DNA of 37,428 bases from a virus (IMGVR_UViG_2651869749_000010:1-37428); one strand, 5' to 3'; counted from the first letter of the stretch, positions 5,028-16,608 are shown. The notes: a model not told the origin generated them from the letters alone. Program-made: numbers and translations.

Positions 5028-7850
5028 ATGACGGCAGAGTACATCAGGGACTGGCAACAACCGCGCCACGCAGTGGGGCGTGAAGGAACGGGGATCCCCG
5101 CTCCTGAATCCGCGCTTTCCTCCTGGCTGGATGCCTACCGGGCAGAGAACGAGCGCCGCCAGGAAATGGCTGATGCGGCGTTCTCCGCCACGCCGCTGGG
5201 CAACCTGATTAATAAAAGCCTAGACGCACAGGAAAAACAGGACAAAACAATCACACTGGCAGGAGACGCCAGAAAACAGGCACGCGGCGCGGTAGATGAG
5301 GCCATGGCCTCACTGCGCCTGCTGCCGTCCTATCTGCGCGATCCGCTTATTCGCCACCTCTCCTTCCTGCGCAAAAAACAGGAAGCCGATCGTCAGCAAG
5401 GAAAAAACGCCAGGCAGGCAGAACGCTATGCGCGTGGGACCCTGCGCAAAATATTCGAACGTCTGGAGCGCACCGATCACCGCTGGCTGACATCGGGTTA
5501 TCGCTCCCTTGCCGGACGTGAACGCCTGGACGATTTGATTTACCTGCCGCAACTCAACAAACACCAGATACAGACGCTGGCCACCATGACGGCGGCGATG
5601 TTCAGCAGCACCTTCGAAAAACTCTGCGATGGTTTTGGCGCGACTGATGGCGAGCTGACCATGGATGTAACGCTGAAGGCGTATCAGATGCTGGCCCGCA
5701 TGGCGTTACACTTACACGCCATGCCTCCGCATTATGACGCACTGACAACAGACAAAGACCGGAGGCACGAACCGGACACAGAACTGCTGCCGGGCGCAAT
5801 CCTTCGCCTGACCTGTGCGGAATGGTGGAAACGCAAACTGTGGCTGTTACGTTGCGAGTGGAGAGAAGAACAACTCCGCGCCGCCTGTCTAGTTTCCAGA
5901 AAAACATCGCCCTATCTGAGCCAGGACGCGTTAAGCGAGTTTCGCGCACAGCGCGAGAAAACACGCGATTTCCTGAAAAGTTTCATGCTGGAAAATGAAG
6001 ACGGGTTCACGATTGATCTCGAGACGGTGTATTACGCGGGAGTAAGTAACCCGGTTCACCGTAAGGCAGAAATGATGGCCACCATGAAGGGGCTGGAACT
6101 TCTGGCCGAAGCCCGTGGCGACAAAGCGGTGTTTCTGACTGTCACCTGCCCGTCAAAATACCACGCCACAACGGAGAACGGTCATCCGAATCCCAAATGG
6201 AACGGGGCCACAATGCGCGACTCCAGCGATTACCTGGTTAACACGTTTTTTGCGGCGGTCCGCAAAAAACTGAACCGCGACGACCTGCGCTGGTATGGCA
6301 TCCGCACGGTGGAGCCTCATCATGACGGCACCGTGCACTGGCATATGATGGTCTTTGCACATCCGGAAGAAATCGACACCATTGTGTCCCATACCCGCGA
6401 TATTGCCATTCAGGAAGACCGCCACGAGCTGGGCAATGATATTACTCCGCGCTTTAAGGTGGAGTATGTCGACGGCTCAAAAGGCACGCCAACCAGCTAC
6501 ATCGCCACCTACATCGGAAAGAACCTGGACAGCCGCGCCGTGGATGGCATCGACCCGAAAACGGACAAGCCACGCGTGGACCACGAAACCGGAAAATCAA
6601 TGGCCGAGAGCGTGGAACGCGCCATCGGCTGGGCGCGTCTTCACCGCGTCCGCCAGTTCCAGTTCTTTGGTATCCCCTCCCGTCAGGTATGGCGTGAACT
6701 CCGCCGCCTTGCCAGTCAGATGGCCCGCAACCCGGAAGGTCCACAACGTCTGGAAAATGACGCAATGGATGCGGTACTCGCTGCCGCTGATGCCGGGTGT
6801 TTTGCCACCTACATTGAGAAACAGGGTGGCGTACTTGTTCCACGCAAAGACTACCTGATTCGCACCGCCTACGACCTCGCAGAAGAGCTGAACGATTACG
6901 GCGAGCAAAGCGTACAGATTTACGGGATCTGGTCGCCACAAATCGGGGAATCTTCCCGCGTGTGCACGCACCCGGATAACTGGAAGCTGGTAAGACGTAA
7001 ACCGGAAGCGGAAGACAGCGCCCGCGAAAATGGTTTTGACCTTCAGGGCGGCCCTGCCGCCCCTTGGACTCGTGGCAATAACTGTCCCCGTGTACAGGAA
7101 ACGGACAACAACGGGACAGAACAGCCGGAAGAACGGCCAGCACCGTGGCCGCAGCTCCCTGACGGCGTTGAAGTGAACGAATGGATGCGCTCACTGAAAC
7201 GGCACGAACGCCGGGCGCTGATGCGTTCGCTTCGTGACAAACAGGCAAAAAACAGCAGTGATGAAATGCAGAGCTGGACACAGAGCCGCAAACAGCAGCG
7301 GCCTTTGCCTGATAACCACGAATTACTCGCTAAAGAATGGCGGGAGTCTGCTGAATCTCTCGGCCTGCATATCGGTGAACAGCAGATGCAGCACCTGTTA
7401 CGGGGCGGCAGTCTGTACGTTGACGGCAGCATCATTGCACCGCAGGGATTTGAAATTGTACGCAAACCGGATACCCGACCGGACAGCCGGATCACGCAGC
7501 TCTGGCAGCGCCTGAGCCGTAACCACGGCGTAAGCAGCACGGAGATCCGCCATAACCCGGTCGCCAGCTATCTGGAACAGCTGGGGGCATCAGACCCCGA
7601 AGCCGCCGCACGCCTGGCATCCACACTTCAGCAAGACCAGAACACCATGAAAACACCCGTTACCGTGCTTTCTGACATGCTGCGCGCCATCCGCGACGCA
7701 GAGCACGCACAGAGAATCAGTGAAACCACTGAACGCGCCCGCCGCAAAGCAGACCTGCTGCGAGGTGGCCTGACCAGTGGAAACAAAAAACAGACAGAAA
7801 CGGGATTCACAAATCCCGTAAATGAGCAAAAAACGCGCCGCGATATATGA
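5028..7850 (+). CDS. A: Replication initiation protein (P2 gpA-like rolling-circle endonuclease)
   Basis: 940-aa ORF with HUH-type motif (VHWHMMVF) and paired tyrosines (SYIATYIGKN) characteristic of P2 A-family nickases; position after early genes. Confidence 0.85.
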   Translation: MTAEYIRDWQQPRHAVGREGTGIPAPESALSSWLDAYRAENERRQEMADAAFSATPLGNLINKSLDAQEKQDKTITLAGDARKQARGAVDEAMASLRLLPSYLRDPLIRHLSFLRKKQEADRQQGKNARQAERYARGTLRKIFERLERTDHRWLTSGYRSLAGRERLDDLIYLPQLNKHQIQTLATMTAAMFSSTFEKLCDGFGATDGELTMDVTLKAYQMLARMALHLHAMPPHYDALTTDKDRRHEPDTELLPGAILRLTCAEWWKRKLWLLRCEWREEQLRAACLVSRKTSPYLSQDALSEFRAQREKTRDFLKSFMLENEDGFTIDLETVYYAGVSNPVHRKAEMMATMKGLELLAEARGDKAVFLTVTCPSKYHATTENGHPNPKWNGATMRDSSDYLVNTFFAAVRKKLNRDDLRWYGIRTVEPHHDGTVHWHMMVFAHPEEIDTIVSHTRDIAIQEDRHELGNDITPRFKVEYVDGSKGTPTSYIATYIGKNLDSRAVDGIDPKTDKPRVDHETGKSMAESVERAIGWARLHRVRQFQFFGIPSRQVWRELRRLASQMARNPEGPQRLENDAMDAVLAAADAGCFATYIEKQGGVLVPRKDYLIRTAYDLAEELNDYGEQSVQIYGIWSPQIGESSRVCTHPDNWKLVRRKPEAEDSARENGFDLQGGPAAPWTRGNNCPRVQETDNNGTEQPEERPAPWPQLPDGVEVNEWMRSLKRHERRALMRSLRDKQAKNSSDEMQSWTQSRKQQRPLPDNHELLAKEWRESAESLGLHIGEQQMQHLLRGGSLYVDGSIIAPQGFEIVRKPDTRPDSRITQLWQRLSRNHGVSSTEIRHNPVASYLEQLGASDPEAAARLASTLQQDQNTMKTPVTVLSDMLRAIRDAEHAQRISETTERARRKADLLRGGLTSGNKKQTETGFTNPVNEQKTRRDI
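7800..7819. promoter_or_regulatory. 20-bp palindrome ACGGGATT-N4-AATCCCGT, copy 1 (inside the 3' end of gene A)
   Basis: Read directly: acgggattcacaaatcccgt; second near-identical copy 73 bp downstream. Confidence 0.4.
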
Positions 7851-9097: not shown

Positions 9098-9508
9098 ATG
9101 ACCACTATTACCAAAGAACGTATTGAATTGTTCATTAAAAATCCGCTTGAAAACGGGCTTACTCGTGACGAACAAATGGAACTGGCACGAATTGCACTGG
9201 CATCGCTGGAAGCAGAGGCAGTTATGTTCTGTATATCAGGACAAAATGTAGATTCAGAAGAACATGTATCAACCAGCAAAGCGGTTGTTGATGCCTGGGT
9301 TGAAGAATGGAATCAGGTTGACGGAAGTCCTGGCGAACCACTGTACAAAACTATGCCACTCTACTATCACGCTGCCTTGCCAGCGCCGGTAGTGCCGGAT
9401 GAAATGTATTGGCAGGATGCGCCAGTTGAAGGCAGCAGCAAAGCGGCTGCATACGCTACAGGCTGGAACGCCTGCCGCGCCGCTATGCTTCATGGGAAAG
9501 GAGAGTGA
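9098..9508 (+). CDS. Hypothetical protein (136 aa) bracketed by the duplicated 87-aa gene
   Basis: 136-aa ORF; stop followed 1 nt later by ATG of duplicate gene; no recognised domain. Confidence 0.55.
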   Translation: MTTITKERIELFIKNPLENGLTRDEQMELARIALASLEAEAVMFCISGQNVDSEEHVSTSKAVVDAWVEEWNQVDGSPGEPLYKTMPLYYHAALPAPVVPDEMYWQDAPVEGSSKAAAYATGWNACRAAMLHGKGE

Positions 9509-9777
9509 TATGGCAACTTTGACAAAAAAAGAACAAGCATGGTTGAGCGAATTACAGGACGTTCTTGATCGCTGCCCATCACCGAAAAAAATTGGTTTTT
9601 ACACCATTGGCGATAAAAGCATTTACCTGTATGACCTGCGCCGCATGGATGAAATCATGGAGGCTCTTGATAATCGTTCGTCAATGGATTGGTGTGTTGC
9701 TGTCCATGATATGAATGCAGGGTTTGATGAAAAGATTTTGTTCCCCTCATCAGTTGAAAGCACAGCAGGATAAGGAC
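9497..9777 (+). repeat. 281-bp direct repeat, copy 2
   Basis: Identity by eye with 8811..9091. Confidence 0.85.
9510..9773 (+). CDS. Hypothetical small protein (87 aa), copy 2 (identical to 8824..9087)
   Basis: ORF-track frame 9399..9773 contains the identical 87-aa sequence from ATG 9510; the N-terminal extension is the overlap with the upstream gene. Confidence 0.6.
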   Translation: MATLTKKEQAWLSELQDVLDRCPSPKKIGFYTIGDKSIYLYDLRRMDEIMEALDNRSSMDWCVAVHDMNAGFDEKILFPSSVESTAG

Positions 9778-9808
9778 CCAGCAAATATACACAACCTATA
9801 AAACACTA

Positions 9809-9833
9809 AAGCGCCTCAGGGGCGCTTTTTGTT
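9809..9833 (+). terminator. Rho-independent terminator closing the accessory operon
   Basis: GCGCC-tcag-GGGCGC hairpin followed by TTTTTGTTT. Confidence 0.6.
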
Positions 9834-9860
9834 TGCACAAAAGTGCACAAATTTGCACAA
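9834..9860 (+). repeat. Three TGCACAA direct repeats at exact 10-bp spacing
   Basis: tgcacaa at 9834, 9844, 9854 read directly. Confidence 0.6.
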
Positions 9861-10359
9861 TTTTTTTGAACGACTTTTTACCCTTCCGGCCCGCATGGCG
9901 GCTGGATCCGTCAAGGATCCGTGCGTGCACAAAAAAACGCGCTTTTTCTGCGCGCAGGTGACGGGGGAACAGCCCGCGTTTCAGGGGGTAAATAGCATTC
10001 CCTGAACGATGTCGCAGAGACACAACAGAATGGCCATATTTCTCACGCTGAGCATGAAAAAGGCGTGAGGGCTTTTGATTTGATGGGGTGAAAGGTAAGG
10101 CCGTCAAAATCGCACTGAGGCAGCGAGAACATACAGTCAACGCGGTGGAATTGCGTAAGAGTCTGACCGTCGATGGTGGCGATAAACTGGAAGGCGTCGT
10201 GAAATTATCTGATTGATACAGGAGCTGGAGAGCCGGGGCATAAATTTTTTATGCCCCGGCGAAGCAGCAGACAAGCGAAGCGCGTCAGCGATACGGCACC
10301 TTGCCGACCATACTTCATAAGTGCAAAATACGAGCAAAGAAATCAATGGAGGCTGTCTT

Positions 10360-10884
10360 ATGGTCATTAATTACAAGCAGTTAAGAGAAAAACGGGAGCA
10401 GGTAAAGGAGAGCTTTCGCCGCAATGAAGATCTGACCCCGCTTGTACGCCTTGCCCAGGGCATTGTTGATGCTTATGAAATCTCGCTGGAGCTGCCATCA
10501 CAGACCTGGACAGATAGCGACGGTAATCGCCAGCATTACGTTTCATGCGGACTGGAAGCAGCCGAAGGATTTCGCAGAATGCCTTTATCCCAGATCCCTG
10601 CCGCTACCCCCAAAGCATGGGGCAGCAATGATGAGCGAAAACTGACTTTTAGTATTGAAACGGTGGTTGACGACACACCTGGCGAAGTCGCGTTCGTACA
10701 CACTCCTGTTTCGATCGCAATGTATAACGATGAAATACAGGTTCGCGTTAATAATAATATCGTGCCACTTAAAGAAGGTAATTCACCCTACACCACCGTT
10801 TGTGAAGCCATTCAATATTACGTTCTCTCTGAAATTGATAATCTCAAGCCTGACGGCACCCAGAAAATGGTTCAACTCTGGTAA
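10360..10884 (+). CDS. Hypothetical protein convergent with the portal gene
   Basis: Frame 10321..10884; ATG at 10360; no recognised domain; overlaps portal 3' end by 41 bp on the opposite strand. Confidence 0.45.
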   Translation: MVINYKQLREKREQVKESFRRNEDLTPLVRLAQGIVDAYEISLELPSQTWTDSDGNRQHYVSCGLEAAEGFRRMPLSQIPAATPKAWGSNDERKLTFSIETVVDDTPGEVAFVHTPVSIAMYNDEIQVRVNNNIVPLKEGNSPYTTVCEAIQYYVLSEIDNLKPDGTQKMVQLW

Positions 10885-11944
10885 AAAGGACAGCCCCATC
10901 ACGGGGCTGTTTTTCATCAAGAAGAGCATAAGAGTTAAAACGGATCACCTCTTCGCCAAGCCAGTCATTGATGTGCTTCATAGCCTCCATGACGGGCATC
11001 AGCTCGTTAATTGCGTAAACCCGCGCTGCCTTCTCCACATCGCCAAACGCACTTTTTTCGCCCGGCATCGCCCCCATCAGTTGCGGCGGAACGCGGTGCG
11101 CAGCCAGCACATCATCACGGGATGCCGCCTTAACATTCATGAATTCATCTTTTGCGGTGATCTGCTGGAACGGCAAAATTTGCCCCCCCTCTTTGCCCCC
11201 GTTGGGCGCATGAATGAGCACGTTTTTAAACGCACCACCACCACGTGCCCCCTGTAGCGTTTCTTTCAGGGAGTCCATGCTTTCGCGGTTTACCTGCGCT
11301 GCACCGATGTAGATGATGCACCCGGCGTGGGATCCGTTGTCGTAGTACAGTTTTCTGAACATGTCCGCCGAATGAGAAAGGCTGGCCGAGAGTAATGCGC
11401 CAAGATATTCCGGCATGCCGTAGATTTCCTGGTTAATATCCGGATTCATCAGGTGGCACACTTTGCCAGGACGAAACTGAAACGCGTCCTTGCCATCCTG
11501 CACATACCACCATGATTCAAGATCGCTTCCGCGTCGCATGTATTTCGCCAGGGCGTGCCGTAATTTAAGCGGTTCGCCGAGCATATTGCTTCGAAGCTCA
11601 AGGAATGCGTTACCGAACACAAACCAGTCCAGCGCCAGCGCCGAGAAATCCTGCCGGGAAAGCAGCGGGTGCGGGATGTAGCAACCGAGTAATACATTGC
11701 GCTTAAAGTAAAGCGCAGACTGATGCCAGGACGTTTGCCGGGCAGCTCTTGCCAGACCGTACCAGTCCACCGGGGTTTCATACCACCGCCCGTTATCAGC
11801 ACAGTACATATTGTCCAGCAGGTCATGCCCGGTCAGGCGATAAGGACCATCAAATGTGAATGCACTGAGCGATGATTCTTTCCTGAGCGCATCAGCGAGA
11901 TCAATGCGTGAACTCATGCGCACTTTTTTATTTTTTCTGCTCAT
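10844..11944 (-). CDS. Q: Portal protein (P2 gpQ-like)
   Basis: 366-aa ORF directly downstream of and overlapping the large terminase gene; size and position as in P2. Confidence 0.8.
   Translation of the reverse strand: MSRKNKKVRMSSRIDLADALRKESSLSAFTFDGPYRLTGHDLLDNMYCADNGRWYETPVDWYGLARAARQTSWHQSALYFKRNVLLGCYIPHPLLSRQDFSALALDWFVFGNAFLELRSNMLGEPLKLRHALAKYMRRGSDLESWWYVQDGKDAFQFRPGKVCHLMNPDINQEIYGMPEYLGALLSASLSHSADMFRKLYYDNGSHAGCIIYIGAAQVNRESMDSLKETLQGARGGGAFKNVLIHAPNGGKEGGQILPFQQITAKDEFMNVKAASRDDVLAAHRVPPQLMGAMPGEKSAFGDVEKAARVYAINELMPVMEAMKHINDWLGEEVIRFNSYALLDEKQPRDGAVLFTRVEPFSGCRQA
10889..10915. terminator. Bidirectional hairpin terminator between convergent genes (lies inside the portal 3' coding end)
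   Basis: CAGCCCC-atca-GGGGCTG stem with T-run on both strands (tttttcatc on plus; cctttttac on minus). Confidence 0.45.
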
Positions 11945-13695
11945 CAGAACTCCATAACTGTGAAACGCTCGTTTTCTCCTTCGCCGCCAATTGGTTCGTT
12001 AATGACAGCAAGCATGGTTGCCCACGCAAGGTCGCCGTGGCTGATCCCCCTCGCGCGGTCCGTTTCGTAAGTGATAAAGCCGCCCGGTGTTTTCACCTTA
12101 CGCACGGCGTTAAAGGCTGCGACCAGCTCGCGTTCGGCGCGATCGTATTCCCACCGCCCGGCACGCATTATTTGCAGCATTTTCAGTACCAGCGACCGTT
12201 TTGATGACAGCGTGAAGGTGTACGGAATAGCAGCAGGGAAAAACCGTTTCACTATCTGATAAACAGCCTCCCCGTTCCCGCCCGTCACATCAATGCCGAT
12301 GTGTTCCACGTTGTAGCGACACGTGAACTCTTCAATGACTCTGGCCTGTTCTTCAAACTCCAGCCCCTGAACGCGTCGCGTCTCCACCGTTCGAAAACGG
12401 CCACCAGGAACAGACGGAGGAACCACCACGGACACAGCGCCGCTGTCGCCGTTGCCACTGCTGCCGTTTGCGTCATACCCAATCCATACCGGACGATTCC
12501 CCATCGGGCGGGGAGCAAAAGGTTTCCAGTCTTTCCAGTCGTCGTATCCGTCAACACCACAGCCAATCAGGATATTCAGGTTAAATGCCGATTCCCCTTC
12601 GCGGACAAACTCACACATATAGAGATTGAGGAACTCGTCTTCGGTGTTTTCATCACGAATTTCATCAATATCGGTGTGTTTCCAGCCGTGATTAACCACA
12701 TCTTCCAGCGTGACAATTTGCCGCCACGTCCGGTCAGGGCAGATAAGCCCGTTATGCAGCGTTTTCCAGTCCACAGAAAAACGCTGGCGTTTATGCGTGG
12801 CCTTTTTCTCGTTCCAGCGGTCGCCGTTCCAGTAGGCGTATGCCTCGTGCGTTTCGGTGGATGGCGTGGAGAAGTAGGTGCGCCGCAGTCCGCTGAGGGT
12901 TGCCATAGCGCCAGCCACCTTGCGCAGTTCAGCAAAGCGACTGACCCAGAAAAATTCATCAAAATAAAAATTGCCCGTATAGGACTGCGCCGACGCAGCA
13001 GAAGTGCCGAGAAAATGCAGCTCTGCGCCGTTGGAGAGGATGATTTTATCGCCCCCTTTCAGCTCCACATCAACTTCAGCCGCGGCCTTCTGAATAATGC
13101 TTTTAAACTGGAACGCCTGACGACGCGACGCAGACAAAAAAATCTGGTTACGCTGGTAAGGTTGCGCCACATCGTCACGCAGCGCCATCAGCAGTGCTTC
13201 CTGTGCAAAATACCAGGTCGCGCCAATCTGTCGGGATTTCAGGATCATCCTGTTACGTATCCCGGCTTCCCTGCAAAGGGTCAGGGAGTCAAACCAGCCC
13301 CGCTGATGCCACTCCAGCCTGCTGATGATTTTTTCCCGCAGTGCGACAATCTGTTCCGGCGTGAAATGATTTTTGAGTTTTTTCGCCCGGCCTTTCTTTC
13401 CTGTGGCCGTCGCATCCGGCTGGCCATCATGCATTTTTTTAAGCTGCCGGGTCAGCAGGTCTATTTCCTTAAAGTCACCGCCTGTTTTATTCTGTTTTTC
13501 AGTAAGCTGGATGAGGCGCGCATCGATGGACTGCGTGACACGCTGCACGGGTGGCGTTTCATCCCACTGGTCGCGTTTTTTCCACGCATAAATCGTGTTC
13601 GGGTTTATTCCCATCAGACGTGATATTTCTGCGGGCGGATAACCCTGCCAGTAAAGTTGCCGCGCACGCTGGCGCACAAAAGCGTCCTGAATCAT
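11944..13695 (-). CDS. P: Terminase large (ATPase) subunit (P2 gpP-like)
   Basis: 583-aa ORF, size and position as P2 gpP; divergent from scaffold gene. Confidence 0.85.
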   Translation of the reverse strand: MIQDAFVRQRARQLYWQGYPPAEISRLMGINPNTIYAWKKRDQWDETPPVQRVTQSIDARLIQLTEKQNKTGGDFKEIDLLTRQLKKMHDGQPDATATGKKGRAKKLKNHFTPEQIVALREKIISRLEWHQRGWFDSLTLCREAGIRNRMILKSRQIGATWYFAQEALLMALRDDVAQPYQRNQIFLSASRRQAFQFKSIIQKAAAEVDVELKGGDKIILSNGAELHFLGTSAASAQSYTGNFYFDEFFWVSRFAELRKVAGAMATLSGLRRTYFSTPSTETHEAYAYWNGDRWNEKKATHKRQRFSVDWKTLHNGLICPDRTWRQIVTLEDVVNHGWKHTDIDEIRDENTEDEFLNLYMCEFVREGESAFNLNILIGCGVDGYDDWKDWKPFAPRPMGNRPVWIGYDANGSSGNGDSGAVSVVVPPSVPGGRFRTVETRRVQGLEFEEQARVIEEFTCRYNVEHIGIDVTGGNGEAVYQIVKRFFPAAIPYTFTLSSKRSLVLKMLQIMRAGRWEYDRAERELVAAFNAVRKVKTPGGFITYETDRARGISHGDLAWATMLAVINEPIGGEGENERFTVMEF

Positions 13696-15807: not shown

Positions 15808-16608
15808 ATGATTACTCCTGCACAACAACACTGGCAGAACGTGATGGCACAGCGCGCAGGCCGGGCGAATGAAGGTGTGGACCACGCCGCGTGTACCGCG
15901 CATGAAGAGGTGCTGTATCGTCTGCGTCTGGCACAGGCCAGGCTAAAGGCCATACAGGCCAGAAGCGCGAAAGCCGCCATCAAAAAAGAGTTGTTGCCGG
16001 ACTTTTCCGGCTGGATTGAGGGAACGCTGGAGGCTGACGGCGGGCAACAGGACGAAGTAATTGCCACGCTGATGGTGTGGGCGATTGACTGCGGCGATCT
16101 TCCGCTGGCGCTGCGTATTGGTGCATATGTGGTCCGTCACAACCTCATCATGCCGGATAACTTTGGCCGTACTGCTGCCACGGTACTGACCGAAGAAATC
16201 TGCAACCCGGTACTGACGCAGGCCGGGACGGATGCCGACGCGGATTTATCCGCCTTTATCGAACCACTGGACACACTTTGGGAAATTGTCGCCAACCAGG
16301 ACATTCCGGACGAAGTGCGCGCCAAATTATGCAAGGCGTGTGCCTTTGCCCGTCGTGGCCTGACCGATGCAGACAACATGGCCTCATCACTGAAGCTGCT
16401 GCGCGAAGCGATGCACCTGAACCCGAACGCAGGTGTGAAACGCGAGATTGCAACCCTTTCCCGCGCCCTGAAAAAAGCCGATTCCGCAGCCGAACCAGAA
16501 GACGCCAGCGCACAGCAGGCGCAGGACGAAAGCAGCAAAAGTAAAAAGACAACGCGGAAGCCTGCAACACGAAAAACCACCGCGACGCAGAAGGCAAAGC
16601 GCGGTTAA
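15808..16608 (+). CDS. M: Terminase small/endonuclease subunit (P2 gpM-like)
   Basis: 266-aa ORF following capsid gene; position and size. Confidence 0.75.
   Translation: MITPAQQHWQNVMAQRAGRANEGVDHAACTAHEEVLYRLRLAQARLKAIQARSAKAAIKKELLPDFSGWIEGTLEADGGQQDEVIATLMVWAIDCGDLPLALRIGAYVVRHNLIMPDNFGRTAATVLTEEICNPVLTQAGTDADADLSAFIEPLDTLWEIVANQDIPDEVRAKLCKACAFARRGLTDADNMASSLKLLREAMHLNPNAGVKREIATLSRALKKADSAAEPEDASAQQAQDESSKSKKTTRKPATRKTTATQKAKRG

Follow-up and report, generated by a model that had tools for sequence, protein, structure and literature searches.

Three phased TGCACAA repeats as the probable distal terminase-recognition array of a P88-type cos site, and their counterparts with lineage-specific words across the P2 family

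Introduction

Cos sites act like address labels, determining the DNA that a phage packages. Phage cos sites whose repeats bind terminase are already known, and so is the cos of P2 and P4. In phage lambda, cosB comprises the elements R3-I1-R2-R1 beside the nicking site cosN, is bound by gpNu1 and bent by IHF, a host protein that cosB employs for this purpose; the flank of cosN farther from the terminase genes is occupied by cosQ and not by cosB. The headful packager P1 relies on a pac site in which clusters of the hexamer TGATCA/G flank the cut on both sides and are regulated by Dam methylation. Small terminases of solved structure typically consist of a helix-turn-helix (HTH), an oligomerisation core and a beta-barrel. 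The cos sites of P2, 186 and P4, which are closest to the locus studied here, reportedly give rise to cohesive ends of 19 nt.

The P2/P4 literature describes a shared core of ~55 bp (PMC9594776). A P2 cosmid with longer flanks around this core transduced at 0.035, whereas the base cosmids reached 1.7e-5, and an exchange of the packaging signal brought a gain of ~1e4- to 5e4-fold (PMC9594776). The satellite P4 is without structural or terminase genes and relies on the terminase of its helper, and hotspots adjoining cos have also been described (PMC9122126).

The DNA analysed here, referred to as the window, is a viral stretch of 37,428 nucleotides (IMGVR_UViG_2651869749_000010:1-37428) that represents a P88-type (Xuanwuvirus, Peduoviridae) P2-like prophage. 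A reading of this DNA made from the sequence alone had pointed to three TGCACAA repeats, proposing that they form an iteron-like array on one face of the helix near the expected packaging region, to which the small terminase subunit or a host factor might bind, or which might regulate the adjacent region. We find that the array is real and very probably functional. It is likely, in our judgment, that its three copies (D1-D3) are the distal recognition array of cos and that, together with a fourth copy (P), they constitute 3+1 sites read by the phage's own terminase.

Results

The three repeats are identical, lie on the plus strand and are spaced by exactly 10 bp from start to start (Table 1), as the sequence-only reading had stated, and the terminator that it placed before them is recognizable as a terminator-like hairpin directly upstream. 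That reading missed cosN itself and the fourth identical TGCACAA, P (9926-9932), exactly 72 bp past D3. In the whole window, TGCACAA occurs nine times versus 9.8 expected in 37.4 kb; the word is not over-represented window-wide, so that the signal lies in its clustering. D1-D3 are the sole 7-mer triple at any fixed period of 8-13 bp in the 37.4 kb. The iid expectation for such a triple is 1.6e-4 per period, and shuffling produced one in 1 of 5000 sequences at period 10 and in 5 of 5000 at any period of 8-13.

Table 1. Features of the predicted cos region and of the genes around it. Positions are those of the window; conservation refers to 13 GCAC-class representatives with <90% identity.
Feature	Position	Strand	Remarks
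gpA-type replication gene	5028-7850	+	followed by small cargo genes, then the array
Intrinsic-terminator-like hairpin + T-run	9808-9828	+	end of the upstream cargo genes; outside the conserved cos block
D1, distal repeat TGCACAA	9834-9840	+	core conservation 0.97
D2, distal repeat TGCACAA	9844-9850	+	core conservation 0.97
D3, distal repeat TGCACAA	9854-9860	+	core conservation 0.99; 72 bp upstream of P
T7 run + GA after D3	9861-9869	+	conservation 0.88
Linker of fixed length	9870-9925	+	sequence weakly conserved (0.72)
P, proximal repeat TGCACAA + A-run	9926-9937	+	conservation 0.99; starts 31 bp before cosN
GC-rich hairpin + GCGCGCA before cosN	9938-9956	+	GCGCGCA conservation 1.0
Predicted cosN, GGTGACGGGGGAACAGCCC	9957-9975	+	predicted from homology and position
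Portal gene (gpQ homologue)	10844-11944	-	landmark downstream of cos in all relatives
Large terminase (TerL, gpP homologue) CDS	11944-13695	-	followed by scaffold, capsid and small terminase
TerL N-terminal HTH, residues 6-63	13507-13680	-	Pfam PF06056 Terminase_5, E=1.8e-26; HTH_23
Small terminase (TerS, gpM homologue)	15808-16608	+	Pfam PF05944; alternative candidate reader or architectural partner

The genes are arranged in the order replication gene, cargo, array, portal, TerL, scaffold, capsid and TerS, and the cos of P2 is found in the matching place. From array to portal, the arrangement is that of P2, of all 80 IMG/VR loci and of ~50 genome loci. In the window phage, the terminator upstream of D1 marks the end of a variable hotspot. 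Similarity of P88, P884B11 and Enterobacter phage phiT5282H (from another genus) to the window begins exactly where D1 does; farther 5', beyond position 9834, these three phages have cargo of unrelated sequence, and 67 IMG/VR variants are likewise unrelated there. A search of 5426 complete E. coli genomes located the block in 1146, with most of the alignments starting at window position 9834.

The cargo around this block has features of its own. The last cargo ORF before the terminator occupies 9399-9773, and the segment 9465-9777 has 95-98% DNA identity to Ea22/ead-like genes of lambdoid and Stx-converting phages, a likeness in sequence that suggests that lambdoid and P2-like phages have exchanged cargo in the hotspot beside cos. 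The protein encoded by the replication gene has 940 aa, its Phage_GPA domain covers only residues 179-503, and the C-terminal region of ~440 aa is without Pfam assignment. Genes for a ParM-like protein and a partition protein come right after the replication gene in P88 (L003), P884B11 (L002) and PhiR44_2 (L004), which would be out of the ordinary for a P2-like phage that integrates and is a hint of a plasmid-prophage option. On the opposite side of cos, the window harbors an insertion of ~550 bp relative to P88 (10289-10843), between the cos block and the portal stop, and a 187-aa ORF inside this insertion (10321-10884) has no Pfam match. Given that, across the family, the portal gene lies anywhere between ~130 bp and >2.5 kb from cosN, a second cargo slot seems to exist on this other side of cos.

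A P2-type cosN was not found anywhere in the window with up to three mismatches allowed. The cosN of the window was instead located via divergent relatives that keep the block ending in GGTGACGGGGGAACAGCCC. This 19-mer is the closest match of the window to the P2 cosN GGCGAGGCGGGGAAAGCAC, with 13 of 19 positions identical (counted by eye), and intermediate forms exist: L092 has GGTGACGGGGGGAAAGCCC, with 15 of 19 positions identical to P2, and L226 has GGCGAGGCGGGGGAGTAAG beside a GCACAA array. Among 80 IMG/VR loci retrieved by the cosN 19-mer alone, all those with enough downstream DNA have a P2-type portal gene (67-100% identity) ~200-940 bp downstream. From homology and position, we infer that the cohesive ends arise from a staggered cut at 9957-9975. 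None of the deposited genomes of this type begins or ends at 9957-9975. The break of the linear P884B11 sequence, 19 bp after D3, was considered as a cos end and rejected because the first base was picked by the authors, who set nt 1 relative to reference genomes (PMC6969025).

The GC-rich hairpin preceding cosN has an analogue (ccgcccc..gcgggcg) at the same spot in P2, 186 and P4. Read on the minus strand (9937-9955), the window hairpin is followed by a T-run and scores as an intrinsic terminator of leftward transcription; it could keep transcripts of the portal-terminase operon from running on into the cargo. In one contig, L158 (IMG/VR 2681813261_000011), the P88-type cosN 19-mer comes after unrelated sequence (ggcattatctgaacataaaacac...) and the contig ends 49 bp upstream, which could reflect a rearrangement, an assembly join or a prophage edge.

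Conservation was scored on the representatives of Table 1. The GCACAA cores of D1-D3 score 0.97-0.99, while the first T of D1, D2 and D3 scores 0.62, 0.77 and 0.92, the two 3-bp spacers 0.51 and 0.79 and the upstream flank 0.48. Beyond cosN, conservation decays within ~15 bp and is down to 0.54 within ~35 bp. As judged from these alignments, conserved cores with free spacers are the pattern expected of phased protein contacts, not of a generally conserved stretch. The sequence-only reading had made its case depend on conservation in related phages, which is what these cores display, and the 10-bp phase of D2 to both D1 and D3 is kept in every array of the GCACAA motif class. The T7 run and GA after D3 possibly form an intrinsic bend. 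The linker keeps its length within 1 bp despite sequence divergence; in the window it contains a GC-rich inverted repeat, CCGC-atg-GCGG (9891-9901), equivalent GC palindromes being present in other lineages.

P2, 186, P4, 66 P4-like satellite variants and dozens of divergent prophages have a common layout of three phased repeats, 72 bp, one repeat, 28-31 bp and cosN. At the right ends of P2, 186 and P4, three copies of TGCAT (spaced by 12-13 and then 10 bp) are followed after 72 bp by TGCATT and after another 29 bp by cosN, with a GC-rich palindrome before TGCATT and with AAAA and a GC hairpin between TGCATT and cosN; the counterpart of P in these phages is TGCATTAAAA. The cos of P2, 186 and P4 is like that of the window in its location between the hotspot and portal gene Q and in an identical order of elements. 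It differs in the word, GCAT(T/G) versus GCACAA, in the distance from D1 to D2, 12-13 versus 10 bp, in the distance from the start of the proximal repeat to cosN, 29 versus 31 bp, and in 6 of the 19 positions of cosN. The comparison with P2 and 186 that the sequence-only reading had recommended thus uncovers a corresponding array of three copies, equally far from cosN, and, as far as sequence can tell, bears out a phased protein-recognition array on one helix face in the cos/packaging region.

To define this geometry, we examined 167 non-identical cos regions, made up of reference phages, 80 one-genome-per-species loci (portals 46-99% identical), IMG/VR P88-type loci and P4-like satellites. 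The array was callable in 143 of them, and in 139 of these D3 and P are 72 bp apart (69 of 71 GCAT-class and 70 of 72 GCAC-class regions). The distance from D2 to D3 is always 10 bp, and the proximal core lies 28 bp from cosN in the GCAT class and 30 bp in the GCAC class. In some distant lineages, the Photorhabdus and Variovorax types, the distal array is degenerate and uncallable. As another instance of GATC (Dam) sites in this part of cos, besides those of the window linker, D3 is immediately followed by GATCnnnnnnGGATC in many 186-like cos regions (L239, L258, L279 and others).

The geometry also emerged from a motif-agnostic test, in which the proximal 10-mer was compared with every upstream offset in 20 lineage groups of equal weight. 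The 10-mer recurs upstream only at 72, 82 and 95 bp, with averages of 5.9, 5.7 and 4.5 matches of 10 against a background of 2.4 +/- 0.7, and distal and proximal sites therefore covary regardless of motif. The repeat word is lineage-specific, and its distal and proximal copies change in step. GCACAA in the distal array is paired with proximal TGCACAAAAA in the P88 and Novemvirus types, GCATG with TGCATGAAAA or TGCATTAAAA in the 186 and P2 types, GCGTCA with TGCGTTAAAA in Collimonas prophages, and TCACAA/GCACA with TGCACAAAAA in Xenorhabdus.

Retention in satellites was observed directly as well. From 80 loci with a homologue of P4 Psu (62-100% identity), all of the TGCAT type, we obtained 66 distinct P4-like cos regions, and every one of the 66 keeps TGCAT-N8-TGCAT-N5-GCATG, the proximal TGCATTAAAA and cosN. 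In divergent P4-like satellites, repeats and cosN are kept although the linker has changed, and the variable hotspot starts ~7 bp past cosN. The stretch preserved by the satellites indicates that the cis-acting unit extends from the array to 7 bp past cosN. The ~55-bp core shared by P2 and P4 can be read as P, the hairpin and cosN, with the distal array as a separate island of similarity; the reported effect of cosmid flanks, which is not mapped to the array, is suggestive and would fit a role for the array. Neither the 80 P88-type-cosN loci nor the 80 Psu-linked loci include a satellite whose cos is of the GCACAA type, and two short-match E. coli hits considered as satellites of this kind turned out to be divergent prophages.

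As candidate readers of the repeats, we compared the two terminase subunits. The HTH of TerL is homeodomain-like and precedes the ATPase and nuclease domains. Its recognition helix varies by Y, Q, H or A within T-[IV]-x-[SA]-W: arrays of GCACAA are accompanied by INQNTIYAWKKRD, those of the 186/P2 type by KTPTVQSWKQRD, those of GCATG by KVATVHSWKKRD and those of GCGTCA by QRSTIASWKQRD. These discrete helix types parallel the cos word across Enterobacterales and Betaproteobacteria. The AlphaFold2 model of TerS is all-alpha and TPR-like, with pLDDT >90 over residues 31-225, and ends in a disordered, basic, K/R/T-rich C-terminal tail. Foldseek retrieved only TPR proteins with this model (E at least 0.015, TM at most 0.35), no small terminase or HTH among them, and a sequence search of the PDB found no TerS relatives. 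Comparison of the model with solved structures shows a predicted fold unlike that of any solved small terminase.

Spearman and partial correlations of cos divergence with divergence of the TerL-HTH, the rest of TerL and TerS are all similar. Partial correlations for the TerL-HTH and TerS are 0.15 versus 0.125 for the array and 0.21 versus -0.01 for the proximal region. Covariation was dropped as a discriminator of the reader subunit, the correlations being similar and discordant cases pointing both ways.

Discussion

Like lambda cosB, the cos of the window has several copies of a short word by the nicking site, with four copies within 125 bp of cosN, and the analogy suggests terminase assembly in a fixed geometry, in which bending between the sites is probably needed. 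Unlike in lambda, the array of the window lies on the cosN side opposite the terminase genes, has no IHF site within 9830-9980, and consists of four direct repeats with a fixed 72-bp gap; the predicted distribution of DNA-binding domains also differs, TerS being without a winged helix and TerL having an HTH. With P1 pac, the locus shares clusters of short repeats by the packaging cut and the presence of GATC, since the P88-type linker of the window contains GGATCCgtcaaGGATCC (9904-9920), two copies of GGATCC separated by gtcaa whose Dam sites (9905-9908 and 9916-9919) are ~11 bp apart. By analogy with P1 pac, this GATC pair in the cos linker may make packaging sensitive to methylation. The repeats of P1 are themselves Dam sites, however, whereas those of the window are without GATC, and the GATC pair is absent from P2, 186 and P4. 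Replication iterons, such as TGTTCACC of P4 ori/crr, are also short direct repeats with helical spacing, but the array is unlinked to an initiator gene, has a fixed distance from cosN and is kept despite unrelated replication systems (P2-like gpA versus P4 alpha).

Under our preferred reading, three DNA-binding modules of an oligomeric terminase would occupy D1-D3 on one helix face and a fourth would occupy P. The 72-bp linker (~7 turns) would be bent or looped, possibly with the help of the T7 run that follows D3, the A7 run that follows P and the central GC palindrome, and the defined geometry would put the TerL nuclease on cosN, ~30 bp from P. The motif would serve as a specificity code, written as GCACAA in P88 and Novemvirus, as GCAT(G/T) in P2, 186 and P4 and in other words elsewhere. 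That the reader is encoded by the phage is indicated by the use of different words in phages of one host, the E. coli phages P2 and 186 having another motif than E. coli P88-type phages, and by the presence of the P2/186-type word in a satellite that lacks a terminase. The terminase appears to be the only trans-acting function common to helper and satellite. Within the terminase, the N-terminal HTH of TerL would be the most likely motif reader, with the TPR-like TerS as a scaffold; this preference draws on predicted domains and models and is the least certain element of our proposal. We offer only tentatively, as a possible account, the full scheme for P2-family specificity, in which 3+1 lineage-specific words at the invariant 72 bp are read by the HTH of TerL and the TPR-like TerS acts as scaffold, in contrast to lambda and the other textbook cos or pac phages, where the small subunit is the reader.

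The alternative that survives best assigns reading of the repeats to TerS, the HTH of TerL being otherwise occupied, for example in contacting cosN or gpM. R elements or the packaging site are read by small subunits in lambda, SPP1, HK97 and PaP3 (reviewed in PMC9611059), gpNu1 acting on the R elements of lambda cosB, and by this analogy TerS would be the natural candidate. TerS sequences also differ between motif classes, and its partial correlation for the array is near that of the TerL-HTH. The TerS proteins of Collimonas and Variovorax fall into one cluster and both lineages have a CGTCA-like motif, but their TerL-HTHs belong to different clusters. The reverse is seen in Photorhabdus and Xenorhabdus, which have one cos type and one TerL-HTH type with TerS proteins that are only 53-56% identical. 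A conserved N-terminal SPAxxH helix and the basic C-terminal tail of TerS also speak for it, but the SPAxxH motif is identical in all motif classes and hence cannot encode specificity. The TerS model, moreover, is TPR-like, with no predicted HTH or winged helix and no likeness to solved small terminases. On balance we regard TerS as a doubtful reader. The sequence-only reading was largely right to see a terminase-bound cos-proximal array, and its attribution of the array to the small subunit is left without support by a model that lacks a DNA-binding domain, by the HTH on TerL and by covariation that does not separate the two.

A more improbable alternative is that the array is a termination element of cos akin to lambda cosQ, or a holder of the last end, and not the site of initial assembly. 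In the mature genome the array is found at the right end, on the cosN side away from the portal and terminase genes, where lambda has cosQ and not cosB, and this position might mean termination and not initiation. Conservation also decays within ~15 bp on the other side of cosN. The satellite hotspot, however, begins ~7 bp past cosN, leaving no separate recognition site there and placing all specificity elements on the side of the array. P2, furthermore, is said to package monomeric circles, with initiation and termination at one cos.

Binding of a host architectural or replication protein, with DnaA as candidate and IHF or Fis as others, is very unlikely. At 8 of 9 positions, D1 and D3 (GTTTGCACA and ATTTGCACA) agree with the DnaA box TTWTNCACA, but one-mismatch boxes occur in the window at chance frequency (49 versus 61 expected), and the arrays of P2, 186 and P4, which share the same host, use TGCAT, a word that is not a DnaA box, other lineages having GCGTCA. 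The use of IHF at lambda cosB offers an analogy that finds no match here, as no IHF consensus WATCAANNNNTTR with at most one mismatch occurs within 9830-9980. A conserved host protein would not, in any case, require a lineage-specific word that covaries with P. The host-factor option of the sequence-only reading is disfavored by these same observations.

Least credible of all is a function outside packaging, as a regulatory site, a replication iteron or a homology edge for cargo exchange, for although the array sits at the exact boundary of a hotspot of the cos-adjacent kind (PMC9122126) and the -35 element of the P2 old promoter overlaps D1, the cargo beside it is different in every relative, in content as well as orientation, whereas array, phase and the 72 bp to P do not change, the array contains no promoter-like site and no Rfam match, P4 satellites with unrelated replication and regulation keep it, and a mere homology edge would not give conserved cores with free spacers. 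Regulation of the adjacent region, which had also been suggested from the sequence alone, goes unsupported for the first two of these reasons. In P2 (L006, 33424-33480), mapped starts of old-tin mRNA put the -35 hexamer (TTGAAT) on the first TGCAT, and terminase binding and old transcription could interfere mutually in this phage.

In the literature searched, we did not find the P88-type word, the 3+1 layout, the invariant 72 bp, the covariation across the family or reading by TerL. The TGCAT repeats have no description in the searchable literature, outside of which the primary paper of 1990 lies, and an earlier description of them is possible.

Conclusions

Our results suggest that the functional cos unit of the P2 family is ~145 bp long and consists of 3+1 repeats with a fixed 72-bp spacer and a lineage-specific word, of which D1-D3 are probably the distal part. 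If this is true, the word would predict the P4-like satellites, along with their defence systems, that a given helper can mobilise. The layout would also allow P2/P4 cosmids and transducing particles, for which the reported effect of flanks amounts to several orders of magnitude, to be designed by a rational rule, and it would be a simple signature for finding cos, with the defence hotspot beside it, in thousands of prophages. That TerL, and not TerS, reads the site would become a testable possibility. Were reading by the TerL HTH true, the word itself (GCACAA, GCATG, GCGTCA and others) would set packaging-compatibility groups for satellites and cosmids.
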